Origin: Candidatus Kapaibacterium sp.
GTDB taxonomy: Bacteria; Bacteroidota; Ignavibacteria; Kapaibacteriales; Kapaibacteriaceae
DNA length: 64,000 bases
Reading direction: 5' to 3'
NCBI GenBank assembly: GCA_022842685.1
Contig: JALHPC010000009.1
Coordinates: forward strand, 5,353-69,352
The notes under the pieces: model-generated
Database searches by the model: none
What the model was told of the DNA's origin: nothing
What the model saw: only the letters and a program-made list of their open reading frames with translations
Shown: positions 560-2,275 of the stretch, piece after piece
How the letters are laid out: each line of letters opens with the position of its first letter
Numbering within the stretch: the stretch's first letter is position 1
Translations under genes and position numbers: made by a program

Positions 560-2275
560 CTAGCTCTTCTTAAAGTTTGCGTTAATCCGCTTGACAAGCC
601 TGTAAAATTCTCCGAAGTATTCTTCTCCAGGTACAGCTGTGTCCTTAAACTCCTCTAGGTACTTTCTTTTTAATTTATTTAAGGCCTCTTTCTTCTTGTC
701 ACCTGTACTCTGAAGGGCAGCATCCACTAGGTCAGGATATTTCGTTCTCACAGAATTCTTGATCACAGTAGGTAAAAGACCCTCTATAGATGTTTTACCG
801 ACTTCATCCTTGCCTACTGCCAATAAGTTTCTATTTTCTACGAAGCCAATTGAGGTCAGCGCTTCCCTTACGGAACCATATTTATCACAGTCCACGGTAA
901 CCACCACACTCGTAAATCTATTCTTTATAAAACTCACTACCGCCGTATTCCTAAGTACGTCTGCACCGCCATAAGGAGAAATCTGAATACTATTTCTCAG
1001 TGCACTATCTCCGTGCGCCGGGTCCTTTAATAACTCAAGATATTCTTTGTCAATTTGTCCTTCAACAAGTAGGACGTTGTTCGAGTCATTGAATATCGTT
1101 GATTTCAGCGGGCCAAAATCTTCGCCGTTTATTCCTAGTGCCAAGGCAAACGGCTCATACCATTTGTCTTCTCCTGTGTTCGTGATTATTGAACCCTTGT
1201 CTTTCGCCTTACTCTTTAAGTCTCGGTCGATCAGTATATTCGCCAACTGCTCTTTATGACTAAGCAAATAGGGACTGTGAGTCGTCACAATGACTTGAAT
1301 TTTAAACTCGTCAGCGAGGTCTTGTAGAATTCTTCCAAATTCGGCTTGTGCAGAAGGATGAAGGAAACTCTCTGGTTCTTCTATTAGAACAATCGGATAT
1401 ATTTTCTCCGTCAGATTGGACCCTTCTTGAAATTTTCGAGCGTTAAGCAGGCTCATAAAAATCAGAGTTCTATTCTGAGTTCCGCTGCCCCACTCCTCAA
1501 GAGATACGTCTACGCCTTTTTCCTTCAAAGAAATTTCAATCGATTCTCTTTCTAGCTTCATACCTTGCATCGAGAAACTTACTTCGTATTTATCTTCAAG
1601 TCTCCCTAATAGATTGGATAGTTCATCCTGTTGTCTTTTCAATGATCTTTGAACAGACTTCAATACCCTGTCTATTTTGTCGGAGATCTCTTTCTTGTCT
1701 TTTTCTGTTACGAAGTTGCTGATAGAGTTTTTCTGCTTACGAAAGCGAGAAAACGAGTCGTTTTCAGTTGAGTTGTGAAAAACAACGGTTTCGGAAGTTT
1801 TAATCCGCCGCAACACTTCTCGCTTAGAGAAGTCATTCGTAATTTCTGTTTCACCGAATTTTATTCTATAATCACTTGAGTTGTCCGGCTTCTTGTAAAA
1901 GTCTATGCAAAGAAGTTCTGTTTGGTTACCTTGACTTCCTGTTTCGTTTTTTATGATTAAATCTCTTATGAAAATAAAAAGTGAAGAATCTCCGTCTTTA
2001 TCTAGCTCTAATATTAGTTTTATGTGAATGTCTTCGTTGGTTAGTCTTTTCCACTTTGTTAGGTCATTTTTATAATTGATATCACCGTAGCTGATGAACT
2101 CATCAGCTATTATTCTCACGAAATACCCGCTGCTTAGTAGATTTCTGATCGCCTTTAGAACGTTGGATTTGCCGGCGTTGTTCTTCCCACATATTGCAGT
2201 GTAGTAGTGACAAAATTTCAAGGAGACGTCTTCTAGCGTTCTGTAGTTCTTTACGGTTAGTTCTTTTATGAACAT
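560..2275 (-). CDS. OLD-family ATP-dependent endonuclease (N-terminal ABC-type ATPase + C-terminal Toprim domain), standalone
   Basis: Walker A GKNNAGKSN near the N-terminus. Walker B/D-loop-like LIEEPESFLHPSAQ (IEEPExHLHP pattern of AAA_15/OLD ATPases). C-terminal Toprim motifs LLVEGQIDKEYLE and VTVDCDKYG. Length 571 aa, comparable to P2 Old and GajA. Confidence 0.8.
   Translation of the reverse strand: MFIKELTVKNYRTLEDVSLKFCHYYTAICGKNNAGKSNVLKAIRNLLSSGYFVRIIADEFISYGDINYKNDLTKWKRLTNEDIHIKLILELDKDGDSSLFIFIRDLIIKNETGSQGNQTELLCIDFYKKPDNSSDYRIKFGETEITNDFSKREVLRRIKTSETVVFHNSTENDSFSRFRKQKNSISNFVTEKDKKEISDKIDRVLKSVQRSLKRQQDELSNLLGRLEDKYEVSFSMQGMKLERESIEISLKEKGVDVSLEEWGSGTQNRTLIFMSLLNARKFQEGSNLTEKIYPIVLIEEPESFLHPSAQAEFGRILQDLADEFKIQVIVTTHSPYLLSHKEQLANILIDRDLKSKAKDKGSIITNTGEDKWYEPFALALGINGEDFGPLKSTIFNDSNNVLLVEGQIDKEYLELLKDPAHGDSALRNSIQISPYGGADVLRNTAVVSFIKNRFTSVVVTVDCDKYGSVREALTSIGFVENRNLLAVGKDEVGKTSIEGLLPTVIKNSVRTKYPDLVDAALQSTGDKKKEALNKLKRKYLEEFKDTAVPGEEYFGEFYRLVKRINANFKKS

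Follow-up and report, generated by a model that had tools for sequence, protein, structure and literature searches.

A probable standalone Class 1 OLD-family nuclease gene in a low-GC segment of a Candidatus Kapaibacterium contig

Gene content and domain architecture

We analysed a 64,000-nt stretch of the Candidatus Kapaibacterium sp. assembly GCA_022842685.1 (contig JALHPC010000009.1, positions 5,353 to 69,352 of the forward strand), hereafter called the window, with a focus on a gene near its left end that encodes a protein of the OLD family. This old-like open reading frame (ORF) occupies positions 560..2275 of the minus strand and, from its ATG start codon, codes for 571 aa. The protein combines an N-terminal ABC ATPase, into which a helical region of the dimerisation type is inserted, with a Toprim nuclease domain on the C-terminal side and a tail of helices, as delimited by Pfam, PADLOC and NCBIfam models, AlphaFold2 (AF2) modelling and Foldseek. 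All four motifs quoted for it in a first-pass annotation of the bare sequence were found at the residues given, namely GKNNAGKSN (aa 30-38), LIEEPESFLHP (aa 297-307), LLVEGQIDKEYLE (aa 402-414) and VTVDCD (aa 459-464). With an ABC-type ATPase and a Toprim metal-binding set on one polypeptide, the protein is a member of the OLD family.

Pfam assigns AAA_15 (3.9e-38), AAA_21 (2.9e-24) and DUF2813 (1.7e-10) to the protein. The top-scoring PADLOC model is the generic AAA_15-like 'AriA', which covers only the ATPase (aa 1-337); among the PADLOC matches listed, it is the 'Old' model (6.5e-32, aa 2-464) that reaches from the ATPase into the DxD motif of the Toprim domain. The NCBIfam model retron_eff_Eco8 matches weakly (1.8e-9, 36.8 bits versus a cut-off of 250).

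The ABC ATPase region (aa 1-345; 1241..2275, minus strand) was delimited by motif conservation among 83 sequences and by alignment to Ts OLD. It comprises Walker A at G30-S37 with K36, an FHNST motif whose H167 probably occupies the Q-loop position, a signature-like WGSGTxNR (262-269), the Walker B motif EEPE (299-302), H306 of the D-loop and H333 of the H-loop, and these motifs align with the Ts OLD motifs VIIEEPEMYLHP and STHSP. The insert at about aa 172-260 (1496..1762, minus strand), in which AF2 secondary structure and the predicted local distance difference test (pLDDT) show a long helix (191-224) and loops of lower confidence, sits where Ts OLD has its dimerisation domain and may be its equivalent (PMC7049728). 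The Toprim nuclease domain (aa 396-500; 776..1090, minus strand) was defined by the conserved ligands, a model of the C-terminal region (CTR) and the alignment to P2 Old, its predicted metal ligands being E405 and D409 (ExxxD), D462 and D464 (DxD), and S496 and E498 (SxE). The C-terminal helical tail (aa 503-566; 578..769, minus strand) consists of four helices by AF2 secondary structure and carries a nearly invariant lysine, K536, which might be the equivalent of Ts R487 or Bp K562.

Conservation, selection and distribution of the clade

Conservation was scored across an alignment of 83 relatives. Invariant or conserved in at least 90% of the sequences were G30, N32, G35 and K36 of Walker A, H167, the signature-like residues W262, G263, S264, G265, T266 and N268, the Walker B residues E299, E300, P301 and E302, H306 of the D-loop, and T332, H333 and S334 of the H-loop. 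In the Toprim domain, E405, D464 and E498 were invariant, D409 and D462 reached at least 90%, and so did K536 in the tail. The first-pass annotation had named degenerate catalytic residues as a finding that would speak against its reading; the ATPase and Toprim residues are invariant or nearly so among the 83 relatives and hence not degenerate. The catalytic residues of Ts OLD are K34, E276, H283, H310, E377, D381, D431, D433, S478 and E480 (PMC7049728), and conserved residues of the 571-aa protein correspond to them.

Compared with its six closest relatives, the ORF shows a proportion of nonsynonymous differences (pN) of 0.08-0.12 versus a saturated synonymous proportion (pS) of about 0.9, i.e. 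a pN/pS of 0.085-0.12, and its protein starts and ends exactly as those of its relatives. The identical protein is encoded in a second sample (SRR31107529; 2.7-kb Logan contig L001) with four synonymous differences in the ORF. The old gene is thus under strong purifying selection. Over its whole length, the Logan contig has 11 mismatches to the window. None of these falls into 2276-2920, but seven cluster at 2921-3179, within an ISL3 insertion sequence remnant and near the contig end; this cluster could reflect relaxed constraint or an assembly error at the contig end.

A word-indexed search returned 1844 relatives, and the best 120 of them were almost all 562-577 aa long and aligned end to end. 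When 1.84 billion cluster representatives were scanned exhaustively with HMMER, 126 scored below 1e-30, and about 65 of these were full length, with identities of 33-51% and lengths of 547-599 aa. The clade comprises about 126 clusters at 50% identity and more than 1800 proteins, with a typical length of ~555-570 aa; the best match in a scan of representative genomes was 85% identical. Named relatives were found in Flavobacterium, Flavihumibacter, Chitinophagales and Lishizhenia, and those with 34-39% identity in a gammaproteobacterial and a Binataceae metagenome-assembled genome, so among named relatives the clade is centred on Bacteroidota. Its distribution is patchy and its gene neighbourhoods vary. 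From viral contigs it is nearly absent (six distant matches at <=34% identity), as it is from deposited phages.

Comparison with characterised OLD proteins

When the single sequence was searched against the PDB by phmmer, Ts OLD (6p74) was the best match (6e-16), and no GajA chain was found at E <= 0.01. The family profile gave E-values of 5.3e-25 for Ts OLD, 1e-8 for GajA, 4.4e-7 for Eco8 OLD and 4e-7 for AriA, i.e. the GajA structures scored 16-17 orders of magnitude weaker than Ts OLD, and the aligned part of the AriA structures comprised only the N-terminal ~60 aa. The AF2 model built from the 83-sequence alignment (pLDDT 86.6, predicted template modelling score 0.84) led Foldseek to the same protein, with 6p74 in first place (1.1e-19), GajA in second and in fifth or later (3.5e-17), and Eco8 OLD in third and fourth (8e-17). 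The BLASTP alignment with P2 Old covers 522 aa (E 2e-11, 22% identity) and keeps all motifs in register; P2 Old was the only named phage OLD whose match extended into the Toprim domain, where its motifs LLVEGKTE and ILADCD align with those of the window protein. Judged by such search scores, not by a tree, the protein is closer in sequence to the Class 1 references than to those of Classes 2, 3 and 4, and the clade is strongly indicated to lie outside GajA among OLD ATPase domains.

A separate AF2 model of the CTR (aa 385-571; pLDDT 94.8) significantly matched only the C-terminal regions of OLD proteins in the PDB (probability at least 0.77), namely Class 2 Xcc OLD (6njw; 5e-3, template modelling (TM) score 0.48), Class 1 Ts OLD (2e-2, TM 0.45) and Class 2 Bp OLD (6nk8; 2e-2, TM 0.47). 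In the AF2 models, alpha3 (463-475) and beta4 (484-487) are connected by an 8-residue loop without a helix (pLDDT at least 95), so that Insert 3 is lacking, which is a Class 1 trait by the criterion of PMC7049728. In the same scheme, Class 2 CTRs carry a C-terminal helical domain of ~90 aa, and Class 1 Ts OLD has R487, a conserved Arg/Lys in the loop past SxE (PMC7049728). The tail of the window protein after E498 (~73 aa, four helices) lies between those of Ts OLD (~45 aa, three helices) and Bp OLD (~90 aa, six helices).

Ts OLD (6P74), a standalone gene as well, is thus the best match by sequence, profile and fold. It has the same domain order, with the ABC ATPase interrupted by a helical insert and Toprim behind it, and shares the xIEEPExxLHP of Walker B and D-loop, the THSP of the H-loop, the ExxxD, DxD and SxE ligands and the lack of the Insert 3 helix. 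The two proteins nevertheless share only ~18% identity in the structural alignment, and the one from the window exceeds Ts OLD by 46 aa and has four helices (~65 aa) past SxE, compared with three shorter ones in Ts OLD. The position of R487 is not conserved in the clade, which has the nearly invariant K536 in the tail instead. In addition, the full-length TM-score is low (0.34-0.38), probably due to a differing orientation of the domains.

P2 Old (AAD03309, 586 aa), the founding member of Class 1, is likewise a single gene with Walker A, the signature-like motif, Walker B, the H-loop, the Toprim glutamate and DxD in register, and the in vivo activity of its family depends on both ATPase and Toprim (PMC7049728). 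Unlike the window clade, which is essentially absent from viral contigs, P2 Old is borne by a prophage and co-transcribed with tin, and neither its trigger (inhibition of RecBCD) nor its substrate (the tRNA anticodon stem; PMC12445682) can be assumed for the window protein. The Class 1 DNA nickase Vc OLD of Vibrio cholerae is, by its published description, bacterially encoded and standalone, and its phage defence depends on ATPase and nuclease residues (PMC12392090); by analogy, it offers the best precedent for how a chromosomally encoded Class 1 OLD may function, although its authors placed it in a separate, highly diversified clade (PMC12392090). GajA and other Class 2 proteins (8SM3, 8U7I, 6NK8, 6NJV) share the two-domain organisation, a CTR fold that matches about as well as that of Ts OLD, and a helical extension past the Toprim core, but they differ from the window clade by its lack of a GajB/UvrD partner and of the Insert 3 helix, and the window protein is shorter than a typical GajA. 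Class 4, i.e. the AriA/AriB pair of PARIS encoded by separate adjacent genes, does not fit the window protein, in which ATPase and Toprim are fused in one chain of 571 aa.

Search for partner genes

Past the stop codon of old, each of the three minus-strand frames contains 8-13 stops within 559 nt, which is a poor fit to an operonic partner. The first-pass annotation had reported neither a GajB helicase nor a retron reverse transcriptase (RT) with msr/msd nor AriB in the flanks within the window, and this was borne out: a six-frame Pfam scan detected no helicase, RT (RVT) or Toprim fragments in either flank, and an Rfam scan of positions 1-4000 at permissive E gave just two chance-level matches, both within the ORF. 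In blastn comparisons with relatives of 71-75% nucleotide identity, similarity was confined to 569-2275, i.e. from start codon to stop. Since it ends where the ORF ends, there is no conserved flanking RNA or gene.

The same picture emerged from the relatives. The nine annotated contexts were all different, and we added 80 further metagenome loci and examined the nearest ORF on each side in the non-redundant ones (68 upstream and 65 downstream, 133 in total, from about 70 loci). A UvrD helicase was found in 0/65 downstream neighbours, and neither an adjacent retron RT nor any other recurrent partner was found across the ~70 non-redundant loci. None of the downstream same-strand ORFs exceeded 392 aa. 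When the neighbours were clustered, no family occurred in more than eight loci (about four of them independent), and this largest family consisted of integrases. Among Pfam domains of the 133 neighbours, none exceeded the count of Phage_integrase (5), and RE_HpaII, HsdR, HsdS and rve (3 each) and a UvrD helicase (1) were also counted. The latter, the only one among the 68 upstream neighbours, is a 922-aa UvrD/Rep-type protein encoded on the divergent strand at a distance of 162 nt (L088/L089, 2070-4838, minus strand), next to an OLD relative that is 37% identical, and this is not a Gabija layout, in which the UvrD-like gajB follows in tandem and often overlaps. By context, Class 1 is defined as a single isolated gene with neither a UvrD-like helicase immediately downstream nor a conserved neighbour (PMC6755086, PMC7049728, PMC10568477), and both the window gene, in the DNA from window position 1 rightward, and its clade fall under this definition.

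Genomic context of relatives

Several relatives are located amid defence genes. A methylase-endonuclease pair of the HpaII type lies directly upstream of the OLD relative in L020, L033 and L043, and type I restriction-modification (R-M) operons enclose relatives with 38-50% identity in L030, L031, L034, L044, L063 and L099. In these type I loci, the OLD gene directly follows hsdR or hsdS (gap of -4 to +33 nt) and precedes Fic or DUF4268 genes, an arrangement that seems to recur in metagenomes from the human gut and elsewhere. Other relatives follow AbiEi/AbiEii on a conjugative element (L011) or an AIPR gene (L024), or have LmuB_C, ParE and CdiI genes nearby (L021), and integrases adjoin the OLD gene in L004, L008, L018 and L026-28. 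The position of relatives within R-M operons or beside AbiE and AIPR fits a role in defence.

Two further arrangements were seen in these loci. Genes of the Fic/DOC type or Fic cluster adjoin the OLD relative on its downstream side in L030, L031 and L044, and on its upstream side in L044 and in L052, the latter outside the R-M set. In L008/L010 (9866-11260), the OLD gene of an 80%-identical relative is followed by a DUF6602-DUF4145 pair and then by an Arm-type integrase; the two DUF genes may form a further small module of defence-like character on that island.

Flanking DNA and mobile origin

The flanks had been described in the first-pass annotation as long, non-coding and devoid of ORFs above 88 aa. 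The size limit is correct, the largest flanking ORF having 88 aa (2845..3111, minus strand); non-coding is not the whole story, since the upstream flank holds the pseudogene of a recombinase and the remnant of a transposase.

The former is the C-terminal part of a tyrosine recombinase (~56 aa with the HxLR...LGH...Y box; 2416..2583, minus strand), detected by tblastn (46% identity over 56 aa, E 1.5e-7). It contains two in-frame stops and a Gln at the position of the catalytic Tyr, and ends ~135-140 bp upstream of the start codon of old. The query was a 305-aa XerC-like integrase encoded 50 bp upstream of the OLD relative P0074, on the same strand, in L018, and it was the only one of 346 neighbour proteins tested against the flanks that gave a significant match. 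Pfam Phage_integrase alone matches the remnant weakly (0.16). The Arm-type Bacteroidota integrases of L004 and L008 have no match in the window, and BLASTP of the remnant versus one of these was not significant. One more tblastn match, of DUF5712 at 166-243 (E 9e-4), was discarded, as it fails correction for the 346 queries.

The second remnant, a transposase of the ISL3 family with an internal deletion (~3062..3767, plus strand), is situated immediately upstream of the recombinase remnant and was found by the six-frame Pfam scan. DDE_Tnp_ISL3 matches at ~3483-3701 with the last ~73 positions of the profile (166-238 of 240; E 2.4e-7, 31.2 bits versus a cut-off of 23), and HTH_Tnp_ISL3 weakly at ~3062-3196 (E 0.013), ~290 nt before the DDE part, the frame being open to a stop at 3767. 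At ~51%, the GC content of this remnant is host-like.

The old gene and ~500 nt upstream of it, including the integrase remnant, form a low-GC block at ~500..2800 (~39-41% versus 51% for the window in a 200-nt profile). GC content is 39.5% in the ORF and 40.7% at 2276-2850, compared with 51.2% in the window and 49.9% in the adjacent toxin gene, and the GC content at third codon positions is 0.42 versus 0.52. We infer that the low-GC block is a horizontally acquired segment. The pseudogenes of an integrase and an ISL3 transposase together with this block support the degraded mobile island proposed in the first-pass annotation, and the old gene looks like the conserved survivor of a decayed integrative element.

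The GA-rich stretch noted at ~60-130 is real as well: the plus strand at 61-130 is purine-rich (G+A 0.69-0.73 over 70 nt, a fraction of 0.69 at 61-130 itself), which ranks at about the 99.9th percentile among segments of this length. The stretch shows no tandem repetition and has no match to an RNA or protein family. Tandem Repeats Finder reported nothing in 1-4000. A scan of the whole window detected no tRNA and consequently no tRNA attachment site, and no attachment-like repeats were found around the integrase-old pair of L018. Blastn of both flanks gave no further copies, neither elsewhere in the window nor in any of the loci fetched. Direct and inverted repeats were sought in 1-4000, and a 15-nt imperfect direct repeat (480-494 and 3789-3803, 13/15 identical) was rejected as attachment site, with about seven such 10-nt-seeded pairs expected by chance in 4 kb according to our estimate; it brackets the old gene, the integrase remnant and the ISL3 remnant, and overlaps the stop codon of the toxin gene.

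Interpretation and alternative explanations

Taken together, the gene is quite probably an intact standalone Class 1 OLD-family nuclease of the anti-phage type, brought in by a small low-GC integrative segment whose integrase has since decayed. With Ts OLD as the closest reference, P2 Old in register over 522 aa and a clade without partner genes, the single-gene, P2 Old-like reading of the first-pass annotation is upheld.

Several observations weigh against this interpretation. At the locus, the partner search spans only the DNA from window position 1 rightward, and a partner gene just outside the window was a caveat already named in the first-pass annotation. Pfam OLD-like_TOPRIM matches aa 398-464 only below threshold (E 0.006), and the residue aligned linearly to Ts R487 is not conserved in the clade. 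The structure search with the CTR alone does not separate Class 1 from Class 2 (TM 0.44-0.49 for all); with a CTR that matches Class 2 about as well as Ts OLD, and a tail that exceeds the one of Ts OLD in length, the protein is ambiguous in its structural class. Scans for sigma-70-like promoters and terminators remained at chance level, and the Bacteroidota TAnnTTTG motif does not occur within 425 nt upstream of old. Moreover, some OLD relatives are situated among housekeeping genes (L007, L019), and an anti-phage role of the clade is suggested through guilt by association with its neighbours.

Among the other explanations, an orphaned GajA, i.e. a Gabija (Class 2) protein left without its GajB helicase and therefore non-functional or repurposed, was the second reading of the first-pass annotation, and we regard it as highly improbable. 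Many PADLOC GajA models do match at 1e-19 to 1e-28, mostly in the ATPase part, GajA ranks second and fifth or later in the full-length Foldseek search, the CTR alone matches Class 2 Xcc and Bp OLD as well as Ts OLD or slightly better, and the DNA around the old gene is visibly decayed. However, an orphaned gene is hard to reconcile with a clade that is helicase-less as a whole, with ~555-570 aa throughout and no downstream helicase in any of the 65 non-redundant loci, with a family profile that favours Ts OLD (5e-25) over GajA (1e-8), with a phmmer search without any GajA chain, with a model that lacks Insert 3, a Class 2 feature (PMC7049728), and with strong purifying selection on a gene whose flanks contain no UvrD fragment, i.e. 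no helicase remnant, in the six-frame Pfam scan. That the protein is a Class 3 OLD, i.e. a retron effector whose RT and msr/msd have decayed or lie outside the window, is barely credible: the Eco8 OLD (~750 aa) is far longer than the 571-aa window protein, despite its third and fourth rank in Foldseek and the weak retron_eff_Eco8 match, and the flanks have neither an RVT nor an Rfam match and are not conserved between relatives, which excludes a shared non-coding RNA. RTs do occur 2.4-3.4 kb from OLD relatives in L018 and L021, but they are not adjacent to the OLD gene, and because they contain a GIIM maturase domain they belong to group II introns, not to retrons.

Not every OLD protein has to be a classical defence that depends on its nuclease (PMC12796447, PMC13261556), and a cellular role in genome maintenance or the cell cycle, as proposed for archaeal Cran1, or a dispensable nuclease, as reported for E. 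coli YbjD, might also be considered here, particularly with relatives amid housekeeping genes (L007, L019) and a DUF2813 match shared with the YbjD family. We consider this unlikely given the patchy distribution and varying neighbourhoods of the clade, the repeated occurrence of relatives in R-M, Abi and integrase contexts, and the foreign GC content with integrase and insertion sequence debris beside the old gene; furthermore, the invariance of the Toprim metal ligands throughout the clade speaks for a nuclease that is in use. Finally, the gene might be a silent relic, i.e. an intact-looking ORF that has lost its expression and is stranded in a decaying island beside the RHS toxin locus. Both neighbouring mobile genes are pseudogenes, no promoter is recognisable, and there are no intact genes in the 559 nt downstream and 1.5 kb upstream of old. 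Yet the ORF is full length, ends as in its relatives and has kept every catalytic residue, and the near-identical independent contig differs in the ORF at four synonymous sites only, with pN/pS at ~0.1 in the comparison with relatives, which makes this account very unlikely.

By analogy with Ts OLD, P2 Old and Vc OLD, the protein would dimerise via the ATPase insert, and ATP binding or hydrolysis (K36, E299/E300, H333) would gate or reposition the Toprim active site, which would consist of E405, D409, D462, D464 and E498 plus a basic residue, possibly K536. On phage infection, nucleic acid would be cut by two-metal catalysis (precedents in PMC7049728, PMC12392090 and PMC12445682). This might damage replicating phage DNA, as in the nicking by Vc OLD (PMC12392090), or inactivate host tRNA and abort the infection, as described for P2 Old (PMC12445682); in either case phage replication would be halted, possibly at the cell's cost.

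Regarding its origin, the simplest history would be that a low-GC integrase-old module integrated downstream of the RHS-type toxin gene, with the recombinase directly upstream of old as in L018. Thereafter, the recombinase would have been truncated and decayed, possibly via an ISL3 insertion that itself decayed, with the old gene alone being kept intact. It could further be speculated, although we find it doubtful, that the ~560-aa clade represents a distinct OLD subclass: standalone, with a longer C-terminal bundle whose K536 would complete the active site like K562 of Class 2, recurrently nested in type I and type II R-M operons, where it might be a back-up that senses failed or inhibited restriction (compare P2 Old and RecBCD), and maybe with its own substrate preference.

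To our knowledge, Class 1 is the least understood OLD class, with in vivo data only for P2 Old, Vc OLD and partly YbjD. These three differ in substrate (tRNA, DNA nicks) and in trigger. The window gene is an ordinary further member of a known family, which will not surprise a specialist; as a clean and intact representative of a sizeable clade, with all catalytic residues and with relatives in defence islands, it is a reasonable candidate for cloning. On a small scale, the locus also illustrates how a defence gene is retained while its integrase and a neighbouring insertion sequence decay.

Neighbouring genes

Position 37 holds a minus-strand ATG whose frame continues beyond the left edge of the window, and a plus-strand frame that comes in across this edge stops at 37-39; the gene left of the window thus starts or ends within ~40 nt of the edge. 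On the other side, the ISL3 remnant ends ~30 nt from the neighbouring gene (3799-10902, minus strand), which encodes a 2367-aa protein with DUF6443, YD/RHS-type repeats and a distinct tail of ~230 aa past DWDGLE, a layout that, by its sequence, resembles a polymorphic toxin. Past its stop codon (2276-3798), there is no small ORF in an intact state that might serve as an immunity gene. A cluster of large genes (10904-22802) precedes this RHS-type toxin gene, and at its far end lies a minus-strand gene (22921-24699) for a TPR-repeat protein of 592 aa that carries a LuxR/GerE HTH domain at its C-terminus and may be a regulator of the toxin locus.

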